Shown piece after piece: positions 3,376-24,079 of a stretch of DNA of 64,000 nucleotides. How positions within the stretch are numbered: position 1 is the stretch's first letter; each line of letters starts with the position of its first letter. Position numbers and translations under genes: made by a program. Source of the stretch: Escherichia phage vB_EcoP-ZQ2; the sequence record NC_070874.1. One strand, given 5' to 3'. Below the pieces are notes generated by a model, which saw nothing but the letters and a program-made list of their open reading frames with translations, had not been told where the DNA came from and did not search any database.

Positions 3376-3676
3376 CGAGTGCCTCCATCAGTATCTTACG
3401 AATAACATTAACATCAGATTCAGTACCAATTAAGCCAACAGGCTTACCTGTACTATCTGTTACAAAGGATGCAATCCTTTCCATCTCTGCTGTAATTAAT
3501 TTATCACCACTAATAAGACGATTACGAAGGTAAGCCTCATAAGCTACCTCTACATCTTCTACTGTGGTTCTTTCATTACGAGTGAATGGATTGCTTAACG
3601 GGAATGGTAAGTGGATACGTATATTCCGGTCAGCTATCTTAGCTGAATGAGGGAGTATACAAACAATTTCATTCAA
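3362..3676 (-). CDS. hypothetical early protein (104 aa)
   Basis: ORF track; preceded upstream (minus sense) by a terminator hairpin. Confidence 0.55.
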   Translation of the reverse strand: MNEIVCILPHSAKIADRNIRIHLPFPLSNPFTRNERTTVEDVEVAYEAYLRNRLISGDKLITAEMERIASFVTDSTGKPVGLIGTESDVNVIRKILMEALGEQS

Positions 3677-3714
3677 GGTTATTTCTCCTATTTAAATACA
3701 TATCTAACTATTCA

Positions 3715-3747
3715 AGAATAAAAAATAGAAGCCCTCCTAATGGAGGA
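3715..3747 (-). terminator. rho-independent terminator (minus strand)
   Basis: Stem CCTCC(3733-3737)/GGAGG(3742-3746) with TAAT loop; in minus sense followed by CTTCTATTTTTTATTC. Confidence 0.5.
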
Positions 3748-3867
3748 CTCCTTGTTATTTGATACACGGATGATTGAAGGTAACAATCTTACGTACTGGT
3801 TCAGACGTCTGTTTCTTAACAGCCAGACGCTCTTTCATCTTCTGTACGTCTTCTTTGGTTCCCATGA

Positions 3868-4050
3868 TTAATGATTTACGCATGATTTAGTTGTCCACAT
3901 AAAGTTAAAAGGTTTATTGTTACGTACAATTCTTACAACCATTTGATAGCCATTGAGTTGCACAACACCATAGTGTCGTTTCTGTACACCAGTGTGATAC
4001 CTACGAAAGATACATTCTTCAATGGCATCTTCTATGTTAGTGAATATCAC
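3868..4050 (-). CDS. hypothetical small protein (60 aa)
   Basis: ORF track only. Confidence 0.35.
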   Translation of the reverse strand: MIFTNIEDAIEECIFRRYHTGVQKRHYGVVQLNGYQMVVRIVRNNKPFNFMWTTKSCVNH

Positions 4051-4094
4051 TGGTTCTCCCGTAATACTGACAATTGAGCACAGGTGAATAACGT

Positions 4095-4961: not shown

Positions 4962-5058
4962 TTTGTACTCTCCAGATTTATGTGATTTACGGGTGAACTC
5001 GTCGGTGAGAACACCCAAACAAAGGGATAAAAGTTCAATGATTAGTGGATGCATTTAC

Positions 5059-5084
5059 ATCATCCATAAGACGCGGAGCGTCTT
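5059..5084 (-). promoter_or_regulatory. N4-type virion-RNAP hairpin promoter (leftward)
   Basis: CATCCATAA-AGACGC-GGA(5075-5077)-GCGTCTT: 7-bp stem (5068-5074/5078-5084), GGA loop, CC 11-12 nt from loop centre; intergenic between the genes ending at 5090 and starting at 4961. Confidence 0.6.
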
Positions 5085-5089
5085 TATTT

Positions 5090-5305
5090 TCAGAATGGAC
5101 AGCTTGTTTCAGCTTCAAGTTTGTCCATGAAGTAGCCTGAGTTATGCAGATAAGCATGTAATTCAACATGCCCTTGCATACGGTATTCATCGAGTAAGGA
5201 GAGAAACTCTCCATACTCTTTATCTGTAGACCTTCTTGCGTTACTGAGGTCTACGGGTTTATTACTAAAGCAACTCTCAATCATACGGATATTTTCTACA
5301 TTCAT
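5090..5305 (-). CDS. hypothetical early protein (71 aa)
   Basis: ORF track. Confidence 0.45.
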   Translation of the reverse strand: MNVENIRMIESCFSNKPVDLSNARRSTDKEYGEFLSLLDEYRMQGHVELHAYLHNSGYFMDKLEAETSCPF

Positions 5306-11376: not shown

Positions 11377-14300
11377 ACGCACATACCCCCTTTGATGCAA
11401 ATCAGGATTGGTCTAATCCTTACTGTCAGAACAGTTCCAATGATCCTATGGTAGATGCACTACTTGGTAATGCTTACCATGTGGTTCGAACTGTTTACTG
11501 TAACTTGGGTAACCTGAAACTTATCTATGACTTCCTTAACCAGTATGGAATGGTACTTGGTGTACAGTCTGAAGCAGAACTTAAAGCACTAACAACCAAA
11601 GCTAAGTATGCACGTATCTATGGATTCTCTCGTGCAGGTGACCGTCAGGTAACTGACTACCTGTATGTGGAAGGTGATCGTACGGGTATTATTCCAGACG
11701 ATCCAAAGGCAACCGGTTCGTGGATTACTGTTGCTACTTCTGGTTCTAATAGTGGTGGTACTTCCTCTGGGGAAGGTGCTTATATTCCTTGGGTATACGA
11801 CAATGGTTCTGCTGCTGGTGGGGAAACCACAATCAACGTACCAGATGGTACGGTAGGTGTACCTTTTATCATTATTAATGGGGATATGCAGTATGTAGGA
11901 CGTGGCTTTGAATTTAATGCAGATAGCCTGTCGGTAACTCTGGCTCAACCTCTGGAAGAAGGTGATGAGGTAGTATTCCTTCTGACTGGAGTTCCTGCTG
12001 TACCAGATAATCCTAACGTTAATGACTGGGTTCAGATTAACTGGTTATATAACAATGGTGCTGCTATAGGTGGTGAGCAGGTTATTGCTATCCCTTATAC
12101 CTTCCAGTCTGTTCCTGCTGTGTATAAGAATGGGCTTCGTTTGTATAAAGGATTAGCTACTGAGTCATATACTGCTGACCCGGATAACCAACGTATACTT
12201 CTTACAGAACCACTGGCAACCAATGACCGGCTAATTGTGCAGATTGGTGGTGAAGCACAGGTACTGGAAACAGCAGACCATACCCTTCAGGAAGTTGCTC
12301 GTGCTACTAACGTTAAGGATAGTGAGGTAATTCTTAGTACAGATACTACCCAGTTCCTGAATAATAAGAAGGTTATTTATTCTGTTAGTGAGCAGAAAGC
12401 ATATGGATTACCTGTACTACCAACTAACGTATTCATTCAGTCTGTAAGCAATGGCAAGTTAATTTACTCACCTGGATCCATTGAAGTAGACCTAATCCCC
12501 GTACCCAATTCTGCAGAGAGTTTGGAACAGGCACTGTCAGCTGAAAATGGTGCATCGTTGATTGTAGATAAACTCCCGTATGCTGGAGCAGTACCAAGAA
12601 CCCAGCACGATATAAATTCACAATTTAGTAATATTCTTGACTTTCTAGGCGATGGGTATGATGGCACTACGGATGCTGCAGGAGCCTTTATCTCTGCCAA
12701 CACACTCGTTCCGAAAAGTAGAGAGATTGTTGTTCCAAGTGGGGTGTATCTTCTCAATAGTGACGTGGATTGTTCCGGTCGCCGTTTTACATTTGAGGAG
12801 CCTGTGACATTTACTGGTATTGGTAAGTTCTACCGGGCTATTGTCAATAGAATTATGCCGGATGGAACAACTCGGGTTTCTCAGTGGGCCAAACCAGGAA
12901 CTACCGAATATATGACGGCATCTGCTGTTTTCGGTGACAATGGGGCTACAGCAACTGGCATTCAGATTGGTGGAGCTGTGCCATACAATGGCACAGATGG
13001 TGTCATGATGTTTACCGATGGTAGCTCTGGGTGGTTAGGTGTTCGTGCATCTAAGTGGCCCCACCCTACGGAAATGGCGATATATCCAAGCTCTAAAGCT
13101 GGGTCATGTCAGACAATCTCAGGCAGTAATGCTGTAAAAAGACTGTCGGGTGCTAGCATTACGGCTGAAGCGATTGGGAAACCAATTTCCATCTATGATT
13201 CCCTATATACCATATCGACCATAACAGCAGATGGTTTTACTGTTAAGAATATTAATGGAACACCCGTTACTTGGGGGTCAACGGCAACTCACTCATTCAT
13301 TTTATGCTATTACAATGGTAGTGGTTTGTGCAGCGTATCTGGTACTACTGTGACACGTATTAGTGGCGACCCATTTGTAATTCCTGACCCGACAGTACCA
13401 CAAACAATGACTATAAACGGTATTGACTACCGTGTAGTGTCTTTTACAGACCCTCAACATGTTACCCTTAATTCTGCTCCAGGGGATTCAGCGTTAACGG
13501 AATATAAATTCTGGGGCACAGTCAATAGCCTTAACTCTGCTCTTAGGATTCATCGACTCAATGCTGCTGGGTTTGAGGAAAATATTAGTCTCATTGCTAA
13601 TAATGCTGGCTATTTTGCATTACACGCCGCAGCTGGTAACCCAGCCAATGAGCAGTATCCAATCTATATTGGGTCAGGTTGGGAAGATAACGGACAGATG
13701 CGTAAGAGTATTATCTCTGCAGGTAATGGAGATGTAACTCTTGGTGGGGGTTATGGAAATGGGCCGTTATACGTGCCATATAATCAAACATCTGGCCGCC
13801 CGCAAGTCATGGTGGATAACAGTACGGGTACAGCCACCATTTCGTCTACTGGCGGACCTACTCCGGATGCATCGTTAGCTATTAAAGCTAAGGGTACAGG
13901 TAGGGTTGTGTTTCACTCCGAGGTCGGGGTTAACGCTGCGATATACCCCTACATAGATAACGTTTATTCATGCGGTCAATCCGGGAATAGGTGGTCACAG
14001 ATATGGGCATCGAACGCCACCATCCAGACTTCTGATGGGACGACAAAAACTGCAGTTCAAGCATCCGACTTATCTACAGACTTTATTCTTGGTCTAAACC
14101 CTGTTTCTTATAAGAACATTGTCGGGGGAAATGTTGTAGAAGAGGTTGAAGATGGCGTAGAAGAAATTGAACGACAAGTGGTAGAAAAAGTTACTTCTTC
14201 TGAAGAAGTCCATGAACGCGTTGTTGATGGTGATGAAGTCTACTACGTTCGCAAGTTTGTTAACAAGGAAGTAGAACGACCAGTATTTCATGATGTTGAG

Positions 14301-14594
14301 CTGCGTGACGAGCTTGGCAATGTCATTGGTACAATCAAAACACCATTGATGGAAAAAGTGGTTGTTCCAAAAACTCGTCAAGTTATTACGCCAGTACCAG
14401 GGAAACGGACGCACTATGGATTTATTGCACAGGAGGTTAAAGACCTCGTAGACGAATTAGGAATTTCCGATTTCGGTGGGTACGTTGAAGGTGAAGATGG
14501 TAAACTTGGTCTTCGCTACGGTGAGTTCATCTCTCCGATAGTGTCTTGCTTGCAGGATATTATCAAGCGACTGGAACTGCTAGAGAAAAAGTAA
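11367..14594 (+). CDS. tail fiber / appendage protein with C-terminal intramolecular-chaperone (peptidase S74-like) autoproteolytic domain
   Basis: 1075 aa, Gly/Thr/Ser-rich; C-terminal IQTSDGTTK...YGFIAQEV...GLRYGEFISP resembles the SDxxxK cleavage site and conserved C-terminus of tail-fiber chaperone domains. Confidence 0.7.
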   Translation: MAMNAHTPFDANQDWSNPYCQNSSNDPMVDALLGNAYHVVRTVYCNLGNLKLIYDFLNQYGMVLGVQSEAELKALTTKAKYARIYGFSRAGDRQVTDYLYVEGDRTGIIPDDPKATGSWITVATSGSNSGGTSSGEGAYIPWVYDNGSAAGGETTINVPDGTVGVPFIIINGDMQYVGRGFEFNADSLSVTLAQPLEEGDEVVFLLTGVPAVPDNPNVNDWVQINWLYNNGAAIGGEQVIAIPYTFQSVPAVYKNGLRLYKGLATESYTADPDNQRILLTEPLATNDRLIVQIGGEAQVLETADHTLQEVARATNVKDSEVILSTDTTQFLNNKKVIYSVSEQKAYGLPVLPTNVFIQSVSNGKLIYSPGSIEVDLIPVPNSAESLEQALSAENGASLIVDKLPYAGAVPRTQHDINSQFSNILDFLGDGYDGTTDAAGAFISANTLVPKSREIVVPSGVYLLNSDVDCSGRRFTFEEPVTFTGIGKFYRAIVNRIMPDGTTRVSQWAKPGTTEYMTASAVFGDNGATATGIQIGGAVPYNGTDGVMMFTDGSSGWLGVRASKWPHPTEMAIYPSSKAGSCQTISGSNAVKRLSGASITAEAIGKPISIYDSLYTISTITADGFTVKNINGTPVTWGSTATHSFILCYYNGSGLCSVSGTTVTRISGDPFVIPDPTVPQTMTINGIDYRVVSFTDPQHVTLNSAPGDSALTEYKFWGTVNSLNSALRIHRLNAAGFEENISLIANNAGYFALHAAAGNPANEQYPIYIGSGWEDNGQMRKSIISAGNGDVTLGGGYGNGPLYVPYNQTSGRPQVMVDNSTGTATISSTGGPTPDASLAIKAKGTGRVVFHSEVGVNAAIYPYIDNVYSCGQSGNRWSQIWASNATIQTSDGTTKTAVQASDLSTDFILGLNPVSYKNIVGGNVVEEVEDGVEEIERQVVEKVTSSEEVHERVVDGDEVYYVRKFVNKEVERPVFHDVELRDELGNVIGTIKTPLMEKVVVPKTRQVITPVPGKRTHYGFIAQEVKDLVDELGISDFGGYVEGEDGKLGLRYGEFISPIVSCLQDIIKRLELLEKK

Positions 14595-14660
14595 ATAGTT
14601 CTAACGCGTCGTTGTGTATGGTTTTATGAACCTACTAGACCCAAAGTCTTAATAGCACAC

Positions 14661-14682
14661 AAACCCCTCTTCGGAGGGGTTT
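14661..14682 (+). terminator. stem-loop after the tail fiber gene (UUCG tetraloop; weak U tract)
   Basis: 9-bp stem AAACCCCTC/GAGGGGTTT with TTCG loop. Confidence 0.4.
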
Positions 14683-14705
14683 CCTAGAAAAACAAAGAGG
14701 TTGTT

Positions 14706-17057
14706 ATGAACGAAATGTTCTCACAAGGTGGTAAAGGCTCCACTGGTATACTTACCAATAAGCAAGCCATTGCCCGTAAGTTTGGTGTTAAGCAGAATGA
14801 AGTAGTCTACTTTGCTGTAGGTGTAGACTTAGGTGGTTACAAAGTAATCTATGATAAGACTACCCAGCGTGCTTACTCATTGCCCGTACTTCCTTCAGGA
14901 ACCACTGCTGTAAGTCTTAGCAACCAGGCAGTCCTGGTTCATTCAGCAGGTACAGTTGATTTAGGGGAACTGGCTGCTACATGCAGGGAGTTCGTGAACT
15001 TGTCTGACACGTTTGCTACTGGTTTGGTGGTAAATACTAGAAATGAATTACTATTTCATAATGGTATAGGTTATTCATATTTAGGTTCTCTACCTGTAAC
15101 TATTACCGCAGGAACTAACCCTGTTGGCAATGCAGACTGGAAGCCACAAACTGATCCTAATTTGAGAGAAGATTTATCTTCACCTGACCTAAATAAGGGA
15201 GCTTCTCTTGTTACTTTCCACTACTTAGGCGATACGGTGGAAAGCACATTAGGTAACATTCAATCAGTACCTTTTGAGCATTTCGGCGGCGGAACCTCAA
15301 AAACTGGGGAAGAAAACACCGCTGCTTTGAAAGCGGCTATCTCTTCACAGTTTAAGCACATTTGGTTTAATAACGGTCCCTATACTTTCTCTGGGGATAC
15401 TAATTTTACTGGAATCAATGGTAAAATTTTTGAGTCTAATACAAACGCTGCTTTTGTTTTCTCAGGTTTATTTTTTAACTTCAAATCTCCAGTGGACACC
15501 GAGTTCAGGGGGATCACGTTCAGTGCTCCTCCTACCAATACGGTGTTAAACTCCGTGACTCTTAGTAACTTCACTAATATTAAATTTACTAAGTGTAAGT
15601 TTCTTGGTTTTGGGGGAGACACTACAAATACCGCAGGTAGTGCAGCACTCATACTTTATGCTGGTGATTCCGAGACGGCCCAGTATGCTGCTGGTAGTTC
15701 TACTGGTGCTGTTCTTGATGGGTGCTATTTTGACGGCCTTCGCGACCGTTTGTGTAACTTCGCGGTTAGGGTCTACACAGAATTTACTGTGCCGACTGCA
15801 TCTATTGCAACTAATTCCAATAATAAAATCATTAACTGTGATTTTGTCGGGCATAACTGGAACGCAGTTGAAATAGCCGGGCCTAGTACCCACAGCAACA
15901 TTGTTAGTAACTGTTCAGCTACTAACCCAGGACTGTGCCCATTTGACCTGGATAAAGGGACGCACGATAACATCGTAGAAAATATTACGATACGTAATTT
16001 GAAAGGAGACCTTGGCGTAAGTGGGTTCACCCGCGCGTCGGCTGTCAACATTCAGGGTGCCACTGCTGACACCTACTTTGCATACAATAACACCGTTAGA
16101 AATGTAACATGTGTCACAACTAAGGATAATATCGACGCGTATAACGCCACCGGTTTTGGTTCCGGGTTCGCTGCTGTTAGTCTGGCATACTGCTACAACA
16201 ACTTTGTAGATAATGTCACTATGACATGTAACGGTGGTGTTCCGACCAAACCATCAAATGGCACAATGGCATTCTGTCATCTCACGTTTGAATCTATATC
16301 CGGGTGTACCGTTAATCGGGTGTCTACGGTTAACGCGTCTCATGGCATATTAATGACTTCATTCAAAAGTCAATCTATGTCGGCACTTAACGAGCCAAAT
16401 CATTTTTCCACGTTCCGTAACTCTGGGGCCAACCTAGAAGGTGAAATATTTTACGGGTATGCTACCGCAGCGGGTAGTCCATTGAAGATTATCCTCAATG
16501 ACATAGACCTAACTACATCTGGTGCTCAAAGTAACCTTACGTACAACGGACACAAATATGCAATTGTGTACCGCACAGCTGGAAGCTCTGTTAACTATTT
16601 AAGGATTGAGGAAAGCCGCATCGGATTAGCTACTGATTCTAATCTCTGGTTTGCTATGTGCACAGGGCCGCAAATTGGTTTGCGAGAGGTGCAAATCCAC
16701 GATGGCAACGGTACAGCGAATGTTAATAGTCGTTTTATGGAATCCAATGGTTTGTCATTAATAACAAATATTGCTATCGATAACGTATATGGGGATCTAG
16801 AGAGAAAACCTATCCAGATACAGACGGCGTTAGCCGGGCTGACGGGTGGTACGTTTAAACTTGTTGGTGGGATTTCGGATAGTGGGTTACCACAATCTAG
16901 ACCTGTTACGTTATTCGCCAATTCAGCAACCACATTCCCATCAGCTGCTCAGTTTGATACGAATATAATCTTACGTCGTACATCGGCTACTACGGGCCAA
17001 GCGTGGGGATGGATTAGCACAGGAACAGCGTGGGCAGCGTTAGGCTCACTGACGTAG
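14706..17057 (+). CDS. tailspike / receptor-binding protein with parallel beta-helix (pectate-lyase-like) repeats
   Basis: 783 aa; recurring NIVSNCSATN, NIVENITIRN, NNTVRNVTCV, NNFVDNVTMT segments typical of right-handed beta-helix depolymerases. Confidence 0.65.
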   Translation: MNEMFSQGGKGSTGILTNKQAIARKFGVKQNEVVYFAVGVDLGGYKVIYDKTTQRAYSLPVLPSGTTAVSLSNQAVLVHSAGTVDLGELAATCREFVNLSDTFATGLVVNTRNELLFHNGIGYSYLGSLPVTITAGTNPVGNADWKPQTDPNLREDLSSPDLNKGASLVTFHYLGDTVESTLGNIQSVPFEHFGGGTSKTGEENTAALKAAISSQFKHIWFNNGPYTFSGDTNFTGINGKIFESNTNAAFVFSGLFFNFKSPVDTEFRGITFSAPPTNTVLNSVTLSNFTNIKFTKCKFLGFGGDTTNTAGSAALILYAGDSETAQYAAGSSTGAVLDGCYFDGLRDRLCNFAVRVYTEFTVPTASIATNSNNKIINCDFVGHNWNAVEIAGPSTHSNIVSNCSATNPGLCPFDLDKGTHDNIVENITIRNLKGDLGVSGFTRASAVNIQGATADTYFAYNNTVRNVTCVTTKDNIDAYNATGFGSGFAAVSLAYCYNNFVDNVTMTCNGGVPTKPSNGTMAFCHLTFESISGCTVNRVSTVNASHGILMTSFKSQSMSALNEPNHFSTFRNSGANLEGEIFYGYATAAGSPLKIILNDIDLTTSGAQSNLTYNGHKYAIVYRTAGSSVNYLRIEESRIGLATDSNLWFAMCTGPQIGLREVQIHDGNGTANVNSRFMESNGLSLITNIAIDNVYGDLERKPIQIQTALAGLTGGTFKLVGGISDSGLPQSRPVTLFANSATTFPSAAQFDTNIILRRTSATTGQAWGWISTGTAWAALGSLT

Positions 17058-17063
17058 TAAAAT

Positions 17064-17090
17064 AAAAGGCCCATTTGGGCCTTTTCTTAT
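17064..17090 (+). terminator. rho-independent terminator after the tailspike gene
   Basis: AAAAGGCCC-ATTT-GGGCCTTTT followed by CTTAT. Confidence 0.6.
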
Positions 17091-17302
17091 ATAGAGTTTA
17101 CTGTTTGCATTACCCTAACTGATACTGCTGTTAGGGTAATTACTTGCCCAAAGATATTAAGCATACCTAGCTGAATACCATCCCCCATGTATTGATGCCA
17201 GACACTATGTCTGGATGTACCCCAACATACTAAGTATTATCTAAGAGTCATCTTATGATATGGCCCTATTGGGAATTCTAACTACACAACTACGGTAATA
17301 TT

Positions 17303-17632
17303 ATGAATGAATCAGGTGAACTGCTTCTAGTCAGACTGGAGGAACGATTGAAGACTCTGTTTGATAACCAGGCAAGAGACAGACAGGACCGTGAGAAACT
17401 AGAGGAAACTCTGGTGGAACTACGGGATTCAATCAATGACATAGGTAATAGACTAAAGAATGTGGAGGATAGCTTAGCTAAGAATGAACCTACTATTGAA
17501 GAGTTCATCACCATTAAGCATAAAGTTGTTGGTGCTGGAATTTTTGGTAAGTGGGTATGGGCTGGGGCAGGTGCAATTATTGGTGTATTGGCTGCTGCAA
17601 GACGGGAGATATTCGCATGGTTCGCAGGCTAA
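17303..17632 (+). CDS. lysis-cassette membrane protein (holin/antiholin-like; coiled-coil plus C-terminal transmembrane segment)
   Basis: 109 aa; C-terminal VVGAGIFGKWVWAGAGAIIGVLAAA hydrophobic segment; first gene of the lysis cluster. Confidence 0.4.
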   Translation: MNESGELLLVRLEERLKTLFDNQARDRQDREKLEETLVELRDSINDIGNRLKNVEDSLAKNEPTIEEFITIKHKVVGAGIFGKWVWAGAGAIIGVLAAARREIFAWFAG

Positions 17633-17877
17633 AAAGAAAAGTAGAGTTAGTACCTAACTGGAAAAGATGCTGGAAATGGGCATCCATTCAGATTAGTACA
17701 CTCGGGTTAATTATGTTTTCTGCCATAGATATCATTCAACCAATGCTGACAGGATTACCTCGTCACATCCTAGAAGATATTCCCCATGGTTCCAATATTG
17801 CAATCGCACTGTTTGCCTTAAGCATCGTAGGCAGATTAATACGATTCCGTCCGAAGGAAGATTCACATGAAAGCTAA
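17617..17877 (+). CDS. putative pinholin (two transmembrane domains)
   Basis: Start chosen at ATG 17617 (MVRRLKRK...) within track ORF 17551..17877; two hydrophobic helices; directly upstream of a SAR-type endolysin. Confidence 0.45.
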   Translation: MVRRLKRKVELVPNWKRCWKWASIQISTLGLIMFSAIDIIQPMLTGLPRHILEDIPHGSNIAIALFALSIVGRLIRFRPKEDSHES

Positions 17878-18502
17878 ACAGAAACTTGCTGCGAAAGGTG
17901 GTGCAGTGGGAGGGGTTGTCGCTGCTATCCTGGGGGCAGTGTTCTATATGGAAGGGGGATATGTAAACAATCCTCGTGACCCAGGTGGTGAAACCAATCA
18001 TGGCATTACCCAGGCAGTAGCTAAATCTCACAAAGAAGTTCTGGCTACTGAATACGGCTGGGATGGTTCTATGAAAGGTTTATCTAAAGAGATGGCTGCT
18101 GAGATATACATTGATGACTACGTACTTAAGCCTAACTTCGTAGCTTTCGCTGATATATCTCCTGCTGTAACTCATAAGCTGATAGATGCTGGTGTTAACA
18201 CTGGTGTAACTCGTCCAGCTAAGTGGTTGCAGTTATCTCTTAATGAAATGTCCCGTGATGGCAAAGACTACCCTAAAATACAGGTTGATGGTAAAGTCGG
18301 TACAAGCACTGTTAATGCATATAAAGCATTACAGAAAAAACGAGGCAAAGTTGCAGCATGTCAGGTAATGATTAAATTACTAGATGCTAAACAACTAAAC
18401 CACTACACCTCATTAAACATGCCAGACTTTACATATGGTTGGGTAGCTAACCGAATAGGCAATGTGCCACTGGAGGCGTGTAATGAAGATGCTAATCTCT
18501 AA
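17867..18502 (+). CDS. endolysin, N-acetylmuramidase (GH108-like) with N-terminal signal-anchor-release (SAR) segment
   Basis: 211 aa; N-terminal Gly/Ala-rich hydrophobic segment GGAVGGVVAAILGAVF followed by EGGYVNNPRDPGGETNHGIT. Confidence 0.8.
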   Translation: MKAKQKLAAKGGAVGGVVAAILGAVFYMEGGYVNNPRDPGGETNHGITQAVAKSHKEVLATEYGWDGSMKGLSKEMAAEIYIDDYVLKPNFVAFADISPAVTHKLIDAGVNTGVTRPAKWLQLSLNEMSRDGKDYPKIQVDGKVGTSTVNAYKALQKKRGKVAACQVMIKLLDAKQLNHYTSLNMPDFTYGWVANRIGNVPLEACNEDANL

Positions 18503-18989
18503 AGGTTGGCCTTATCTTCTGGTGGTGGTCCTGGGGGCCACCATTTACTTTTGGGGTAATTCCAATGGACAGTCTACTGTTCAAAAGAAGTGGGATGCCC
18601 AAAAGGTTGAAGACCAAAAGGCAACACAAAAATTACAGGACAAATACAATGCTCTCCAAAGAAACCATAGTTATGAAGTCGGGTTACTCACTTCCCGGTT
18701 GCAGACGGCTGAGAGTAATTACGCAAGCGAGCTTGCTCGCGTTAGCAGTGATTATGACAGCCGGATGCAACAGTCTGAAAGACGAGCATCGGTATATAAA
18801 CGTCAAGCCGAAGCCGGAACCTTTGAGTGCAGAAGTCTTGCAAGCCATGCAGCCAGACTCGACAACAGTCTTGAAGAAGGCAGACGTTTGGTTGAAGAAC
18901 TCAGGGCAACTGTTAGACTCCGTGACAGCCAACTAATTGAGTTGGGTAAACAGATTCAGGCTGACCGTAAACTTTTTGAACAGGAATAA
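18483..18989 (+). CDS. i-spanin (Rz-like)
   Basis: ATG at 18483 with GGAGG RBS 6 nt upstream; N-terminal transmembrane helix [16 protein letters not shown] then a long charged coiled-coil region. Confidence 0.65.
18673..18936 (+). CDS. o-spanin (Rz1-like outer-membrane lipoprotein) embedded in the i-spanin gene in the +1 frame
   Basis: ATG at 18673; signal peptide with lipobox [32 protein letters not shown], Pro-rich mature region; wholly inside the i-spanin ORF. Confidence 0.6.
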   Translation: MKSGYSLPGCRRLRVITQASLLALAVIMTAGCNSLKDEHRYINVKPKPEPLSAEVLQAMQPDSTTVLKKADVWLKNSGQLLDSVTAN

Positions 18990-18991
18990 CT

Positions 18992-21262
18992 ATGGAACAC
19001 CAAGACACTTTTAAGCCTTTACCAGACCCGGCTCAATCAGAGAAGTTAACGGACTGGAAAAAGGAACCAAGTATCCAATTACTGAAAGGTGATTTGGAAT
19101 CAGCCAAACCTGCTCACGATGCAATCATGGCTCAGATTCGTGAGTGGAATGACTTAATGGAAGTCAAAGGCAAGGCTAAACCCCCAAAGGTTAAAGGACG
19201 TTCACAAGTCCAACCTAGACTGGTTCGCCGTCAGGCAGAATGGCGTTATGCACCATTATCCGAACCATTCCTCTCATCCAATAAACTCTTTAAAGTAACC
19301 CCTGTTACTTTTGAAGATGAGTTAGCTGCACGTCAGAATGAACTAGTTCTTAACTACCAATTCCGTACTCAGCTTAATAAAGTAAAACTAGTAGACGATT
19401 ACGTTCACAGTGTCGTAGATGATGGTACTGGTATTGCTCGCATTGGTTGGGAACGTAAGACTGTTAAGATTAAAACAGAAACACCAGTCTTCCAGTTGTA
19501 TCCAATTGAGAACCAGGAACAAGCAGATATTCTTCAACGGGCTTTGCAGCTTCAGGCAGAGAATCCTCGTGAGTATGATGAAACAATGCCTGAAGATATT
19601 AAGGAAGCTGTTAACTACTTCAATGAAACTGGAGAAGCTACCTATGCAATCCAGACTGGAGTTACTGAAGTAGAGGTAGAGAAAGCACTGGTTAACAGAC
19701 CTACTGTTGAAATGCTTAATCCCAATAACGTAGTTATTGACCCAAGCTGTAATGGAGACTTGGACAAGGCTCTGTATGCAGTTATCTCATTTGAGACTTG
19801 CAAAGCAGACCTAATGAAGAACAAGGACCGTTACCACAACCTGGATAAGATTGACTGGGAAAGTTCTAGTCCTATGACTGACCCAGACCATGAAAGTAAA
19901 ACTCCTGGTGATTTCCAGTTTAAGGATGCACTTCGTAAGAAAGTAGTTGCTTATGAATACTGGGGATTTTATGACATTAACGATGATGGTTCACTGGAAC
20001 CAATTGTTGCTACCTGGATTGGTTCTACTCTTATCCGTATGGAGAAGAACCCATTCCCGGATGGTAAGTTACCTCTGGTAGTTGTTCCTTACATGCCACG
20101 TAAACGTGAACTCTTTGGTGAGGCTGATGCCGAACTGTTAGGAGATAACCAAGCAATTCTTGGTGCAACTATGCGTGGGATGATTGACCTGTTGGGTCGA
20201 AGTGCAAATGGTCAACGAGGGTATCCTAAAGGGATGTTAGATACTCTGAACCGACGTCGATATGATGATGGACAAGACTATGAATACAACCCAATGCAAG
20301 GCAATCCTAGTCAGGCCATTATGGAACATAAGTTCCCTGAGTTACCTCAGTCGGCAATAATAATGACTCAGATGCAAAACCAGGAAGCAGAAGCACTAAC
20401 TGGTGTTAAAGCATTTTCTGGTGGTGTAACTGGTGCAGCTTACGGAGATGTGGCTGCTGGTATTCGTGGTGCACTTGATGCAGCATCCAAACGTGAGATG
20501 GCAATCCTTCGTCGATTAGCTAAGGGTATGGCAGACATTGGTACTAAGATTTGTGCAATGAATGCTGTGTTCTTATCAGAAAAGGAAGTAGTACGTATTA
20601 CTAATGAGCAGTATGTAGAAATTAACCGTGAAGACCTTAAAGGTAATTTCGACATTGAGGTTGATATTAACACTGCTGAAATTGATAACCAGAAGTCCCA
20701 AGACTTGAGCTTCATGGTTCAAACATTAGGTAATACAGTTGACCAGACTATTACGTTATCTCTTGTAGCTAAGATTGCAGAACTTAAACGTATGCCTGAC
20801 CTTGCTCATGAATTACGTACCTGGAAACCACAGCCAGACCCTATGGAAGAACAGCTTAAGCAATTAGCAATTCAGAAAGCACAGCTTGAGAATGAAGAGT
20901 TGAAAAGTAAAATTGCACTCAATAATGCTAAGGCTAAAGAAGCTATTTCTAGTGGTGACCTTAAAGACCTGGATTATCTGGAACAGGAATCTGGTACTAA
21001 ACATGCTCGTGATATGGAAAAACAAAAAGCACAATCTCAAGGAAACCAGAACCTTCAAATAACTAAGGCGTTGACAACACCTACTAAAGAAGGTGAAACT
21101 ACCCCCAACATATCTGCTGCTGTCGGATATAACGCTTTGACTAACGGGAACTCTTTACAGGAACGTGACTTAGCTGCACAGCAAGACCCGACTTATTCAC
21201 TTAGTTCCCAGTATTATGACCCTAGCCAAGACCCAGCATCGGCTCTTGGTATGAACTTATAA
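18992..21262 (+). CDS. portal protein
   Basis: 756 aa; position between lysis cassette and scaffold/capsid genes as in N4-like phages; acidic C-terminus. Confidence 0.7.
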
Positions 21263-21275
21263 GGCAGACCTTCAC

Positions 21276-21620
21276 ATGAGTAAAGAATCAACAATCGCAG
21301 GACTGGAACATCGACTTGAAGCTGCTAAAGGTGCAGTTGCACACGCAGAAGATGTACGTAAACTTCTGGAGAATCCACTGTTCCGTAAAGTAATCCTTCG
21401 CCAGTTCTGTGTAGAAGATTGTGCACGTTACGTGCAGGAGTCTGGTGACCCACTGCTTGAACCGAATAACCGTGCAGATGCACTGAACATGGCACAAGCT
21501 GCTGGTCACTTACGTCGTTGGCTCGACCTCGCCATTCGTATGGGTGAGAATGAAGCTGACGTTATTCTTCAGGTAGAAGAAGAACTCGATGCAGTTCGTG
21601 CTGAGCCTGAAGACGAATAA
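21276..21620 (+). CDS. hypothetical head-module protein (114 aa)
   Basis: ORF track; between portal and scaffold. Confidence 0.5.
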   Translation: MSKESTIAGLEHRLEAAKGAVAHAEDVRKLLENPLFRKVILRQFCVEDCARYVQESGDPLLEPNNRADALNMAQAAGHLRRWLDLAIRMGENEADVILQVEEELDAVRAEPEDE

Positions 21621-21639
21621 TTAACCGGAGATATTTCCT

Positions 21640-22860
21640 ATGACTACGGAAGCTGCAACCACAGCTTCCGACATTCTCGCAATGTCGGATGATGAGATTC
21701 TGAATATGGAAGCCCCAGCAATTATTGCTGAGGAAGATACTTCCACTCAGAACAACCCAGAAACCAACGGCGTACAGACTCCTGATGAAGAAGTTGACAC
21801 CTCTGCTGTTGAAGACCTACCAACCGAAGAAACCTTCCCTGAAACTGAGCCAGTTGAAGATGATTCAGCAAATTCTTTAACTTCTGATAAAGTTGATGAT
21901 AAAGTTGTTGACACAGAAGTTGATAGTAACGGTAAGCCGATTACTGAAGCTGAACCTTCTACTGCTGAACCAGGCCAGGAACAGAAAGAAGAAGGCAAAC
22001 AGTCTGAAGGTCTGCCTGCTGACTTCAACTATAAGGAAGGTTATGAGAAGTTGATGGCTCCTTTTAAAGCTAACGGCAAAATGATTACTCCCCGTTCACC
22101 GGAGGAGGCCATTAGCCTGATGCAGATGGGTGCTAACTATACTCGTAAGATGCAAGAACTACAGCCGTACCGTAAGGTAATGCTGATGCTACAGAACAAC
22201 GGTTTAATGGATGAGGAAAAACTTTCTTTCCTGATTGACCTGGATAAGAAGAATCCTGAAGCCATTAAAAAGTTGTTGAAAGACTCTGGTACAGATCCTC
22301 TGGACTTTAATCCTGATGAGGAAATTAACTACCAGGGTGGCAAACACCGTGTTACAGACACCGAAGCAGATTTTGCAACCGAAATTGACGACTTAAAGTC
22401 TACTCAAGAAGGACAAGCTACATTAGGTGTTATTAGCTCGACATGGGATGCTGCCAGTAAAGATGCTCTTTATCAGAATCGTGGCTTACTCCACACCATT
22501 CACGAACAACGTGAGAATGGTATTTATGACACCATTGCTAATGAAGTGAATCGTCTTCAGGTGTTAGGTCAGATTCCGGTAGGTACTCCGTTTATTCAGG
22601 CTTATAACTACGTTGGTAACCTCCTTGCACAACAGGGAGCATTTAACCAAGTGGCTAAGCCTGAACCAGTACAAGCAGTTAAACCAGCTGTTCAGCCGGT
22701 AGTGCGTGTAGCACGGCCTAAGCAGACTCTGGCTAACAGTGAGCAAGCTAAAGCAGCTTCCCTTAATCGGGCTGCTACACGTAAAGCTACACCTATTGTA
22801 AACCCACTCGCTATGAGTGACGAAGATTTCGCTAAACTCCCAGTACCGGGTAGTCTTTAA
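21640..22860 (+). CDS. scaffolding protein
   Basis: 406 aa; highly acidic, low-complexity N-terminal half (E/D/T-rich); immediately upstream of the major capsid gene. Confidence 0.55.
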   Translation: MTTEAATTASDILAMSDDEILNMEAPAIIAEEDTSTQNNPETNGVQTPDEEVDTSAVEDLPTEETFPETEPVEDDSANSLTSDKVDDKVVDTEVDSNGKPITEAEPSTAEPGQEQKEEGKQSEGLPADFNYKEGYEKLMAPFKANGKMITPRSPEEAISLMQMGANYTRKMQELQPYRKVMLMLQNNGLMDEEKLSFLIDLDKKNPEAIKKLLKDSGTDPLDFNPDEEINYQGGKHRVTDTEADFATEIDDLKSTQEGQATLGVISSTWDAASKDALYQNRGLLHTIHEQRENGIYDTIANEVNRLQVLGQIPVGTPFIQAYNYVGNLLAQQGAFNQVAKPEPVQAVKPAVQPVVRVARPKQTLANSEQAKAASLNRAATRKATPIVNPLAMSDEDFAKLPVPGSL

Positions 22861-22876
22861 ACAGGAATGAGATGAT

Positions 22877-24079
22877 ATGTTAAACTATAACGCTCCAATT
22901 GACGGTCAGAAATCTAGCATTGATGGTGCTGGTTCCGACCAGATGAATACCTATTACTGGCTGAAGAAGGCTATTATTCAGTCCCGTAAAGACCAGTATT
23001 TCATGCCTCTGGCTAACACTGTTAACATGCCGAAGAACTACGGTAAGACTGTTAAGGTGTATGAGTACGTTCCTCTGCTCGACGATAAGAACATTAATGA
23101 CCAGGGTATTGATGCTAATGGTGCTACCATCGTTAACGGTAACCTGTATGGTTCTTCCAAAGACGTTGGTAACATTACTTCTAAACTGCCTCTGCTGTCA
23201 GAGAACGGTGGTCGTGTTAACCGTGTAGGCTTTACTCGTCTGGCTCGTGAAGGTTCTATTCATAAGTTCGGTTTCTTCTACGAATTTACCCAAGAGTCTC
23301 TGGACTTTGATTCTGATGACCAACTGAAAGAACACCTGTCTCGTGAACTGATGAACGGTGCTGTACAGTTGACTGAAGCTGTTCTCCAGAAAGACCTGCT
23401 GGCTGCTGCTGGTACTGTACTGTATGCAGGTGCTGCTGTCTCTGATGCTACCATTACTGGTGAAGGTTCTACCCCGTCTGTAGTTTCTTATAAGAACCTG
23501 ATGCGTCTTGACCAGATTCTTACTGAGAACCGTACCCCGACCCAGACTACTATCATCACTGGTTCTAAACTGACAGATACCAAAGTACTTGGTGGTACTC
23601 GTGTAATGTACGTTGGTTCTGAACTGGTTCCAGAACTGAAAGCGATGAAAGACCTGTTCGGTAACAAAGCATTCATCGAAGTTCAGCACTATGCTGATGC
23701 TGGTACTCTGATGAATGGTGAAATTGGTTGTATTGATAAGTTCCGTATTATCCAGGTTCCAGAGATGCTGCATTGGGCAGGTGCTGGTGCTCAGGTTGGC
23801 ACTAACCCAGGCTATCGTTCTTCTATGGTTGGTGGTCAGGAACACTACGACGTATTCCCGATGCTGGTAGTTGGTGATGATTCCTTCTCTACCATTGGTT
23901 TCCAGACTGATGGTAAGTCTGTTAAGTTCACCATCATGACTAAGATGCCGGGTAAAGAAACTGCTGACCGTAATGACCCGTATGGTGAAACTGGTTTCAG
24001 TTCTATCAAGTGGTACTATGGTATTCTGGTTAAACGCCCAGAACGTCTGGCTCTGATTAAGACTGTTGCTCCTCTGTAA
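22877..24079 (+). CDS. major capsid protein
   Basis: 400 aa; follows scaffold gene; biased codon usage; followed by a strong hairpin; size and position match the N4 major capsid protein. Confidence 0.75.

Follow-up and report, generated by a model that had tools for sequence, protein, structure and literature searches.

A probable N4-type late lysis cassette in Escherichia phage vB_EcoP-ZQ2 with a putative C-terminally anchored pinholin

Gene layout and relatives of the locus

The window analyzed here is a stretch of 64,000 nucleotides from Escherichia phage vB_EcoP-ZQ2 (NC_070874.1). Five tightly overlapping genes on the + strand fill its positions 17303-18989, and encode a gp63-like protein, a gp62-like protein, an endolysin and an i-spanin, together with an o-spanin embedded in the i-spanin gene (Table 1). 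All of the open reading frames predicted from the sequence were found, including the +1-frame one ending at 18936, and neighboring genes overlap by 16, 11, and 20 nt. The portal gene lies directly downstream of this gp63-gp62-gp61-gp60 order (with the embedded gp60a), and the upstream edge of the lysis cassette region is marked by a terminator-like hairpin, which sits just 3' of the tailspike stop codon. In a repeat search of the window, no further copies of either of two intergenic hairpins were found.

Table 1. Positions of the genes and sequence features of the lysis cassette region in the window
Feature	Position	Strand	Details
Terminator-like hairpin	17064..17085	+	AAAAGGCCC-ATTT-GGGCCTTTT; -14.4 kcal/mol, z = -3.0
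gp63-like protein, 109 aa	17303..17632	+	69% identical to N4 gp63; phrog_5211 match
In-frame TTG, Leu16 of gp63	17348..17350	+	Position of N4 Met17; 5 bases after GGAGG
Counterpart of N4 gp63 "LIN domain", residues 61-74	17483..17524	+	NEPTIEEFITIKHK; alignment with N4 gp63
gp62-like protein, 86 aa	17617..17877	+	65% identical to N4 gp62; DUF7940; phrog_1356
SAR endolysin (by sequence hallmarks), 211 aa	17867..18502	+	Pfam PF05838 (6e-20) and PF09374 (1.2e-7); N4 gp61
i-spanin, 168 aa	18483..18989	+	phrog_6197 "Rz-like spanin" (5.5e-78); 57% identical to N4 gp60
o-spanin, embedded in +1 frame	18649..18936	+	95 aa from ATG 18649; 87 aa from ATG 18673

The DNA of the whole cassette is 95-96.5% identical over 1.9 kb to that of the published Gamaleyavirus genomes ECBP1, Bp4, St11Ph5, and pSb-1. 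In these records a holin, an N-acetylmuramidase, an Rz-like spanin and Rz1 have been annotated, and the annotation of St11Ph5 covers all five genes (gp63, gp62, gp61, gp60.2, and gp60.1). EC1-UPM and G7C are further published Gamaleyavirus genomes close to this system. The N4 counterparts gp63, gp62, gp61, gp60, and gp60a have protein identities of 57-79% (BLASTP E-values of 9e-55, 3e-44, 8e-104, and 8e-60 for gp63, gp62, gp61, and gp60, respectively). Published genomes of near-identical sequence already carry annotations of the five-gene cassette, and the N4 counterpart has been taken apart by experiment. The order gp63-gp62-gp61-gp60/60a-portal is common to 20 loci from Enquatrovirinae, Rothmandenesvirinae, Erskinevirinae, Zurivirus, and Pokkenvirus. 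A scan of IMG/VR with the i-spanin gave only nine close relatives, and the wider diversity was obtained by tblastn on a GenBank phage collection. The genes, their sequence features, homology and conservation were seen directly, and the gene order, the N4 homology and the family matches bear out the original prediction that a complete lysis cassette is present.

Endolysin and spanin pair

The endolysin begins with a basic tail, MKAKQKLAAK (+4), followed at residues 11-28 (nt 17897-17950) by an 18-residue, charge-free, Gly/Ala-rich segment, GGAVGGVVAAILGAVFYM. Its Gly+Ala content is 58% in the best 19-residue window, compared with 0.16-0.21 for the gp60 and gp62 segments; Hessa-scale insertion energies summed over fixed 19-residue windows did not separate this segment from ordinary anchors, whereas Gly+Ala content did. 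Immediately after the segment comes the EGGY motif of a GH108 N-acetylmuramidase domain, and a PG_binding_3 domain follows this domain. The protein is 69% identical to N4 gp61 over the catalytic part and matches PDB 6v3z at 9.5e-27, and the layout of tail, segment and EGGY is kept in the 20 loci. The basic tail, the charge-free segment and the hydrolase domain after it are the sequence hallmarks of a signal-anchor-release (SAR) enzyme, as had been predicted; export, tethering and release are putative.

The functional evidence on N4 comes from a 2025-26 preprint (Awuah et al., bioRxiv 10.1101/2025.11.12.688109), in which Stojkovic and Rothman-Denes (2007) are cited for the first description of the N4 endolysin. 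N4 gp61 complements endolysin defects together with a holin or a pinholin; when expressed alone it causes slow cell rounding, and G12E changes in it are rapid-lysis mutations (bioRxiv 10.1101/2025.11.12.688109). Gly12 of N4 gp61 corresponds to Gly15 of the present endolysin. Because N4 gp61 works with either kind of holin, a SAR endolysin alone does not predict a pinholin-type mechanism, contrary to this step of the original prediction; for the same reason, an endolysin requiring a canonical holin, which had been proposed as a refutation, is invalid as a test.

The i-spanin, whose start has GGAGG six bases 5' of the ATG, has an N-terminal membrane anchor (approximately residues 8-25) and a periplasmic domain of about 143 residues with a single Cys at position 116. 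The ORF embedded in its +1 frame has a lipobox, MTAG/C, with the Cys codon at 18766-18768, which matches the PROSITE PS51257-style pattern and has Asn rather than Asp at position +2. From either of two possible starts the mature o-spanin is the same, consisting of 56 residues, and is 79% identical (44/56) to N4 gp60a. Shine-Dalgarno pairing is nearly absent at the originally proposed start, ATG 18673 (-0.9 kcal/mol), which reads ACG in ECBP1, KP8, and one IMG/VR contig. All of the Enquatrovirinae loci examined keep ATG 18649, which is preceded by AGGA (-4.0 kcal/mol) and from which the St11Ph5 gene has been annotated. On these sequence grounds 18649 is the more likely start, from which the gene is best annotated, while the predicted ORF and its end at 18936 stand.

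A chance open frame, with the phage using the i-spanin alone or another outer-membrane disruptor, might leave such a weak ribosome-binding site at ATG 18673. It would also be consistent with the finding that no Pfam, PHROG or NCBIfam model matches the embedded ORF, and that with the start at 18649 the lipobox Cys falls at residue 40, whereas the PROSITE rule allows residues 15-35. This explanation is highly improbable, however, and close to refuted. The +1 frame is free of stops for 146 of the 168 codons of the i-spanin gene, and an equal opening was obtained in only 1.6% of same-amino-acid codon permutations and 0.2% of synonymous resamplings (p = 0.016 and 0.002, respectively), namely, the open frame exceeds 98.4-99.8% of synonymous shuffles. 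The embedded lipoprotein ORF is kept in 18 of the 20 related loci, across several Schitoviridae lineages, with a lipobox and a mature part of 56-63 residues even where the identity of the i-spanin falls to 40%. In addition to the close similarity of the mature part to gp60a, N4 gp60 and gp60a together complement lambda Rz/Rz1 (bioRxiv 10.1101/2025.11.12.688109). The lipobox pattern, the open-frame statistics and the conservation confirm the predicted embedded spanin pair.

Assignment of the two small membrane proteins

Hydropathy supports the prediction of two small membrane proteins upstream of the endolysin. The N-terminal domain of the gp63-like protein (residues 1-74) is helical and acidic, with a net charge of -5. 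It is followed by a single C-terminal membrane segment of 25 Gly/Ala-rich residues with an embedded Lys83 (residues 75-99, nt 17525-17599), and then by a short tail, RREIFAWFAG. The PHROG family of the protein is listed as one of unknown function. With the helical domain and the C-terminal segment, the protein carries the family motif P-T-x-x-E-F-x-x-x-K-x-x-V-x-G-A-G-x-x-G-K-W-x-W, of which a core (P63-T64-E67-F68-K72-G77-A78-G79-G82-W86) is kept across 103 sequences. A search of 1.84 billion representatives gave 117 clusters at 50% identity, nearly all of 100-125 aa, and was more informative than the listing of relatives, whose top 120 were all of at least 84% identity; the C-terminally anchored family appears to be compact and tied to N4-like phages. 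A PDB sequence search with the 109-aa protein found only coiled-coil noise (keratin, syntaxin, SMC; E of about 0.1), and its AlphaFold2 model, of low confidence (pLDDT 52, from a 10-sequence alignment), weakly supports the helical segmentation only. In comparison with G7C and PhAPEC5, identity drops from about 95% to about 60% upstream of approximately 17500, which places a mosaic breakpoint in the middle of the gp63 gene. Many database records label the gp63 homolog as "tail length tape-measure protein" or "tail needle protein", and these labels are wrong.

The gp62-like protein, whose start has a GGGAG site (-7.4 kcal/mol), has a basic N-terminus and two membrane segments (approximately residues 21-47 and 55-78). 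It matches DUF7940 at 1.4e-14, the only Pfam holin-related family found, and phrog_1356, annotated as "holin", at 7e-30. Neither the 86-aa nor the 109-aa protein shows the pattern of a pinholin of the phage 21 type, in which the first of two membrane segments is weakly hydrophobic and resembles a SAR segment. A 22-codon upstream extension of gp62 (from GTG 17551) was considered as a conserved antiholin-type long form and was rejected for the group: Moo19 has a stop codon within it, its residues covary with synonymous changes in the gp63 codons that it overlaps, and the start here is a GTG with weak pairing.

The choice between the two proteins, like the other biochemical roles, is made by homology from N4 experiments, across the range of protein identities given above, and is putative. 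Lysis of E. coli by a cloned N4 gp60-63 cassette takes about 25 min (bioRxiv 10.1101/2025.11.12.688109). In the same work, N4 gp63, which consists of a coiled coil and a membrane segment at the C-terminus, complements a defect in the phage 21 pinholin and not one in the lambda S105 holin; when expressed alone it arrests growth, kills more than 99% of cells, and is triggered irreversibly with CCCP. N4 gp62 complements both holin defects, late, releases soluble as well as SAR endolysins, and is non-essential. The gp63 protein sets the lysis timing, and rapid-lysis mutations cluster in it just before the membrane segment, in a stretch which is conserved here: T65, I70, T71, and I72 of N4 gp63 are kept, and S62 is replaced by Asn61. 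By analogy, we regard the gp63-like protein as a putative pinholin and lysis timer and the gp62-like protein as a putative late-triggering large-hole holin. The original prediction had taken the second gene for the pinholin and had left the first, which it termed holin-like, unassigned, as a possible antiholin or lysis regulator; N4 speaks against both assignments, except that the idea of a regulator was half right, since the rapid-lysis mutations lie in gp63, which is itself the N4 pinholin.

That earlier assignment, in which the 86-aa protein triggers the SAR endolysin as the pinholin and the 109-aa protein is an antiholin or timing regulator making no holes, is very unlikely to be correct. 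It would fit the two-segment topology of the 86-aa protein, with both ends inside, which the phage 21 pinholin and other class II holins share, and clustered rapid-lysis mutations are expected of a regulator; deletion of gp62 from wild-type N4 also shortened the lysis delay (bioRxiv 10.1101/2025.11.12.688109). The lethality of gp63 alone and its complementation of the pinholin defect but not the large-hole defect are contrary to it, as is the release by gp62 of soluble lambda endolysin, which is too large for pinholes. Furthermore, the first segment of the 86-aa protein contains Asp and is not Gly/Ala-rich (Gly+Ala 0.16), in which it differs from the first segment of the phage 21 pinholin, the one that leaves the membrane. 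From the plasmid cassette, deletion of gp63 delays lysis by 20 min and deletion of gp62 makes no change, although the authors note that plasmid expression ratios may not match those in infection (bioRxiv 10.1101/2025.11.12.688109). Since few substitutions can change hole size, the split into pinholin and holin might not hold in this genus.

Another explanation would make the 109-aa protein a membrane-tethered acidic factor like the "releasin" gp25 of phage Mu, which frees the Lys-rich tail of the endolysin and is not a hole-former. Mu gp25 has 99 aa and crosses the membrane once; its cytoplasmic domain, of 73 residues, is acidic, and its gene lies next to that of a SAR endolysin which needs two tail Lys residues for its release (PMC9239132). 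The 74-residue acidic domain and the +4 tail described above resemble these features, and earlier thesis work, as cited in the N4 preprint, called gp63 an activator of gp61. Nevertheless, we consider a releasin quite unlikely here. No DUF2730 (PF10805) match, the domain of Mu gp25, was obtained for the 109-aa protein at E <= 0.01, and the topology is mirrored, the anchor being C-terminal here and N-terminal (N-out/C-in) in the Mu releasin. Mu gp25 has no effect on cell growth (PMC9239132), in contrast to the lethal, CCCP-triggered gp63 of N4. The activity of gp63 with the endolysin of phage 21, which is unrelated, does not discriminate alone, because gp25 is a general releasin too. A pinholin of the N4 gp63 family is therefore our preferred label for the first gene, neither a tape-measure protein nor an unassigned one, and holin is that for the second.

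The gp63 gene has a possible second start at TTG 17348, where ribosome-binding-site pairing is stronger than at ATG 17303 (-9.3 vs -3.0 kcal/mol). Its use would give a 94-aa form, which is the form in many public gene calls; the 109-aa form is also real, because residues 4-15 are kept across the family. One may imagine that in the clade of the window, St11Ph5, ECBP1, and pSb-1, gp63 is made from both starts (109 and 94 aa) as a holin/antiholin-type pair setting lysis timing or lysis inhibition, with the second product lacking in the G7C clade, which has CTG at this position; we regard this as a speculative and rather unlikely proposal. Because G7C, of the same genus, has been reported without lysis inhibition, lysis regulation here may differ from that of N4.

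Putative mechanism and comparison with known systems

We think it likely that the locus serves an N4-like E. coli podovirus (genus Gamaleyavirus, family Schitoviridae) as its late lysis cassette, and that the products act as follows. The endolysin would be exported by host Sec and kept inactive in the inner membrane by the weakly hydrophobic N-terminal segment beside the catalytic EGGY. The gp63-like protein, anchored by its C-terminal segment with the acidic helical domain in the cytoplasm, would accumulate and then form small holes, and the resulting depolarization of the membrane would free all of the tethered endolysin at once for digestion of the cell wall. The gp62-like protein, with both ends in the cytoplasm, may serve as a second, late large-hole holin, as a back-up or exit route. 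The i-spanin in the inner membrane and the embedded o-spanin, an outer-membrane lipoprotein, would bridge the periplasm and, after loss of the wall, fuse the two membranes. The C-terminally anchored pinholin family should be of some value for studies of lysis timing and phage yield.

The N4 cassette has the same gene order and overlaps, and likewise lies beside the portal gene. It also shares the SAR layout, the embedded spanins, with a mature o-spanin again of 56 residues, and the conserved stretch that precedes the membrane segment of gp63. Several differences were found. Met13 and Met17 of N4 gp63 are Leu here, the Met17 position being a TTG which keeps the GGAGGA site, and Ser62, a rapid-lysis site of N4, is the Asn61 mentioned above. 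The long gp62 form begins with ATG in N4 and with GTG in the present phage, and the option of a short o-spanin signal peptide in N4 (Met26) is absent. The endolysin tail is longer and more basic (+4 vs +3 in N4), and a tailspike gene lies upstream in place of gp64/gp65.

Phage 21 (S21 and R21) is similar in that small depolarizing holes free a membrane-tethered endolysin, and N4 gp63 can replace S21. There is no sequence relationship, however. S21 has two segments, the first of which exits, whereas the gp63-like protein has a single membrane segment, at its C-terminus, and a large helical domain in the cytoplasm. The present endolysin is a GH108 muramidase, which we take to be a type of enzyme other than the phage 21 endolysin. 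Mu gp25 is likewise small, spans the membrane once and has about 73 acidic-domain residues in the cytoplasm; it differs in its DUF2730 domain, its opposite-end anchor and, compared with N4 gp63, its non-lethality. Like lambda Rz/Rz1, the spanin pair consists of a +1-frame gene for an outer-membrane lipoprotein inside the gene of a type II inner-membrane protein, although only weak PHROG-level similarity ties the present i-spanin to other Rz-like families. The lipidated Cys is the only one in the mature o-spanin, and the i-spanin likewise has a single Cys, so that the disulfide pattern presumably differs from that of lambda Rz/Rz1.

Layout of the cassette and the adjoining tailspike module

Window 17303-18989 holds five tightly packed genes with short overlaps on the + strand, listed in the table below. 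The complete lysis cassette of the original prediction is correct, with all five genes at the predicted coordinates and in the same order as in phage N4, after whose homologues the gp63-like and gp62-like genes are numbered. The cassette is of an ordinary, known kind, the phage is nearly identical to published ones and novelty is low; the finding is valid and its functional labels need correction. The 1.9-kb cassette region has 95-96.5% DNA identity to the E. coli and Shigella phages ECBP1, Bp4, EC1-UPM, pSb-1 and St11Ph5 (Schitoviridae, Enquatrovirinae, Gamaleyavirus), and the five counterparts in the St11Ph5 record are gp63 (hypothetical), gp62 (holin), gp61 (N-acetylmuramidase), gp60.2 (Rz-like spanin) and gp60.1 (Rz1-like).

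Features of the lysis cassette and its flanks, in window coordinates
Feature	Position	Strand	Description
Tailspike gene	14706-17057		783 aa; upstream of cassette
Terminator-like hairpin	17064-17085		directly after tailspike gene
Hairpin 1	17109-17140		11-bp stem, 10-nt loop, -14.3 kcal/mol, z = -4.7
Hairpin 2	17198-17214		7-bp stem, 3-nt loop, -9.6 kcal/mol, z = -2.5
gp63-like gene	17303-17632	+	109 aa
gp62-like gene	17617-17877	+	86 aa
Endolysin gene	17867-18502	+	211 aa
i-spanin gene	18483-18989	+	168 aa
+1-frame ORF within i-spanin gene	end at 18936	+	o-spanin
Portal gene	start 18992		PF23899, 4.9e-150

The 245 nt that separate the tailspike terminator from the gp63-like gene contain two perfect hairpins, further copies of which were not found across the window; a search of this region for sigma-70-like promoters on the + strand gave none. 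Coverage of window 14000-24000 by the best megablast records is only 74%. For the C-terminal receptor-binding part of the tailspike (~15200-17057), megablast gave no match in the phage collection, and the flanks of this part are ~95% identical to ECBP1 and Bp4, so this tailspike head is not seen in those records. Identity to phage G7C switches from ~60% upstream of ~17500 to ~95% from there on, which indicates that the variable tailspike module brings the N-terminal coiled-coil half of gp63 with it.

A stretch that begins ~18 nt ahead of the gp63-like ATG and runs through the 5' part of the gene as far as codon 84 (window 17285-17555) is ~92% identical to positions 5001-5249 of Escherichia phage vB_Ec-G1 (PQ433349), a 151-kb Phapecoctavirus myovirus. 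The homology of its ORF EcG1_105 stops exactly at the membrane segment, and the following gene shares its N-terminus (MNEMFSQGGKGSTGILTNKQ) with the window tailspike. This fragment is probably the scar of a tailspike-module exchange between a podovirus and a myovirus. Weaker partial matches were found in ZCKP1, SKML-39 and AV101.

Endolysin and embedded spanin pair

The endolysin has the predicted sequence hallmarks of a signal-anchor-release (SAR) enzyme: a basic tail (MKAKQKLAAK, +4) is followed by the Gly/Ala-rich segment GGAVGGVVAAILGAVFYM, which is without charge (Gly+Ala 0.58 in the best window), and by an EGGY motif, with the domains GH108 (6e-20) and PG_binding_3 (1.2e-7). Among solved structures, 6v3z is nearest in sequence (9.5e-27), and Gly15 is the counterpart of Gly12 in N4 gp61. 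N4 gp61 complemented endolysin defects whether paired with a large-hole holin or with a pinholin, and alone caused slow cell rounding, which is SAR behaviour (bioRxiv 10.1101/2025.11.12.688109). Since it works with both kinds of holin, the original inference from a SAR segment to a pinholin is too strong.

By hydropathy the i-spanin, matching phrog_6197 'Rz-like spanin' (5.5e-78), has an N-terminal anchor and ~143 periplasmic residues. The +1 frame of its gene is stop-free over 146 of 168 codons, and its lipobox fits a PROSITE PS51257-style pattern, with cleavage before CNSLK, Asn at +2 and a predicted mature peptide of 56 residues. That this ORF is a chance open frame is excluded by shuffle tests, in which so long an open frame arose in only 1.6% of permutations among codons for the same amino acid and in 0.2% of synonymous resamplings, and by conservation: of 20 related loci in phages of E. 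coli, Klebsiella, Shigella, Achromobacter, Pseudomonas, Stenotrophomonas and Burkholderia, 18 have in the +1 frame a lipobox ORF whose mature part is 56-63 residues long. The arrangement described in the original prediction is therefore real and no product of chance.

The embedded frame stands, but its start is more likely ATG 18649 than the proposed ATG 18673. The latter has virtually no Shine-Dalgarno pairing (-0.9 kcal/mol) and is replaced by ACG in ECBP1, KP8 and one IMG/VR contig, whereas ATG 18649, better paired (AGGA 8 bases upstream, -4.0 kcal/mol), is kept throughout the examined Enquatrovirinae loci and serves as the start in the St11Ph5 annotation. The mature o-spanin is identical from either start; from ATG 18649 the lipobox Cys is residue 40, the PROSITE rule range being 15-35. 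Homologous i-spanin ORFs are present but unannotated in Burkholderia phage HN04 (~3577-4080), where only the embedded o-spanin is annotated, and in Achromobacter phage Axy24 (3675-4190), whose record instead has a short ORF on the reverse strand.

The two small membrane proteins

According to hydropathy and charge, the 109-aa gp63-like protein consists of an acidic N-domain of 74 residues (net charge -5), a 25-residue Gly/Ala-rich hydrophobic stretch containing Lys83, and a 10-residue tail. Its ATG 17303 has weak Shine-Dalgarno pairing (-3.0 kcal/mol); an in-frame TTG 17348, preceded by GGAGGA (-9.3 kcal/mol), lies at the position of N4 Met17 and is CTG in the G7C clade, and many public-data gene calls give a 94-aa form. 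Conservation of residues 4-15 in very distant relatives shows the 109-aa form to be real. An exhaustive HMMER search gave a family of 117 clusters at 50% identity, nearly all of 100-125 aa, whose most conserved positions (P63, W86, G77, A78, G82, G79, E67 and K72) lie in a stretch leading into the membrane segment. Many GenBank/UniRef records call the 109-aa protein 'tail length tape-measure protein', 'tail needle protein' or 'DUF342 family', names that are wrong for a membrane-anchored lysis protein. A 96%-identical copy is filed as an Enterococcus faecium hypothetical protein on a 2.76 Mb contig, which looks like contamination or a chimeric assembly, since the protein belongs to E. coli N4-like phage.

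In the 86-aa gp62-like protein a strongly basic N-terminus precedes two segments that are hydrophobic by hydropathy, and its ATG 17617 has a GGGAG site (-7.4 kcal/mol). For N4, an upstream extension of 22 codons has been considered a possible dual start. In the window it begins with GTG and is weakly paired, in Moo19 it is broken by a stop codon, and its residues follow silent substitutions in the overlapping part of gp63; judged from these sequences, it is probably not a conserved product.

Assignment of roles by comparison with phage N4

Protein identities to N4 are 69% (gp63), 65% (gp62), 69% (gp61), 57% (gp60) and 79% (mature gp60a). DNA identity is highest in two islands (0.80-0.86 vs 0.5-0.7 elsewhere), 17501-17700, where gp63 ends and gp62 begins, and 18801-19000, where the spanin genes are read in two frames.

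The cloned N4 gp60-63 cassette lysed E. coli in ~25 min, and gp60/gp60a complemented lambda Rz/Rz1 (Ramsey laboratory preprint, bioRxiv 10.1101/2025.11.12.688109). N4 gp63 complemented the pinholin defect of phage 21, not that of lambda S105, and killed more than 99% of cells (bioRxiv 10.1101/2025.11.12.688109). Both holin defects were complemented by gp62, only after ~2 h; its early triggering requires CCCP and the gene is deletable (bioRxiv 10.1101/2025.11.12.688109). Spontaneous rapid-lysis mutants of N4 were located in gp63 residues 62-72 ('LIN domain') and in the gp61 SAR segment (bioRxiv 10.1101/2025.11.12.688109). The LIN-domain residues T65, I70, T71 and I72 are kept in the 109-aa protein, and N4 S62 is replaced by Asn61.

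The acidic tethered cytoplasmic domain of the 109-aa protein and the Lys-rich endolysin tail suggest, as an unlikely alternative, a releasin-like role, as in Mu gp25, which acts on a SAR endolysin; however, the protein has no DUF2730 match, and N4 gp63 is lethal alone whereas Mu gp25 is harmless. The original prediction called the first protein holin-like but unassigned and the second a pinholin, an assignment contradicted by the N4 complementation data. By these data and N4 homology the labels are most likely reversed: the gp63-like protein would most likely be the pinholin and lysis timer, and the gp62-like protein a late large-hole holin, as their N4 counterparts behave.
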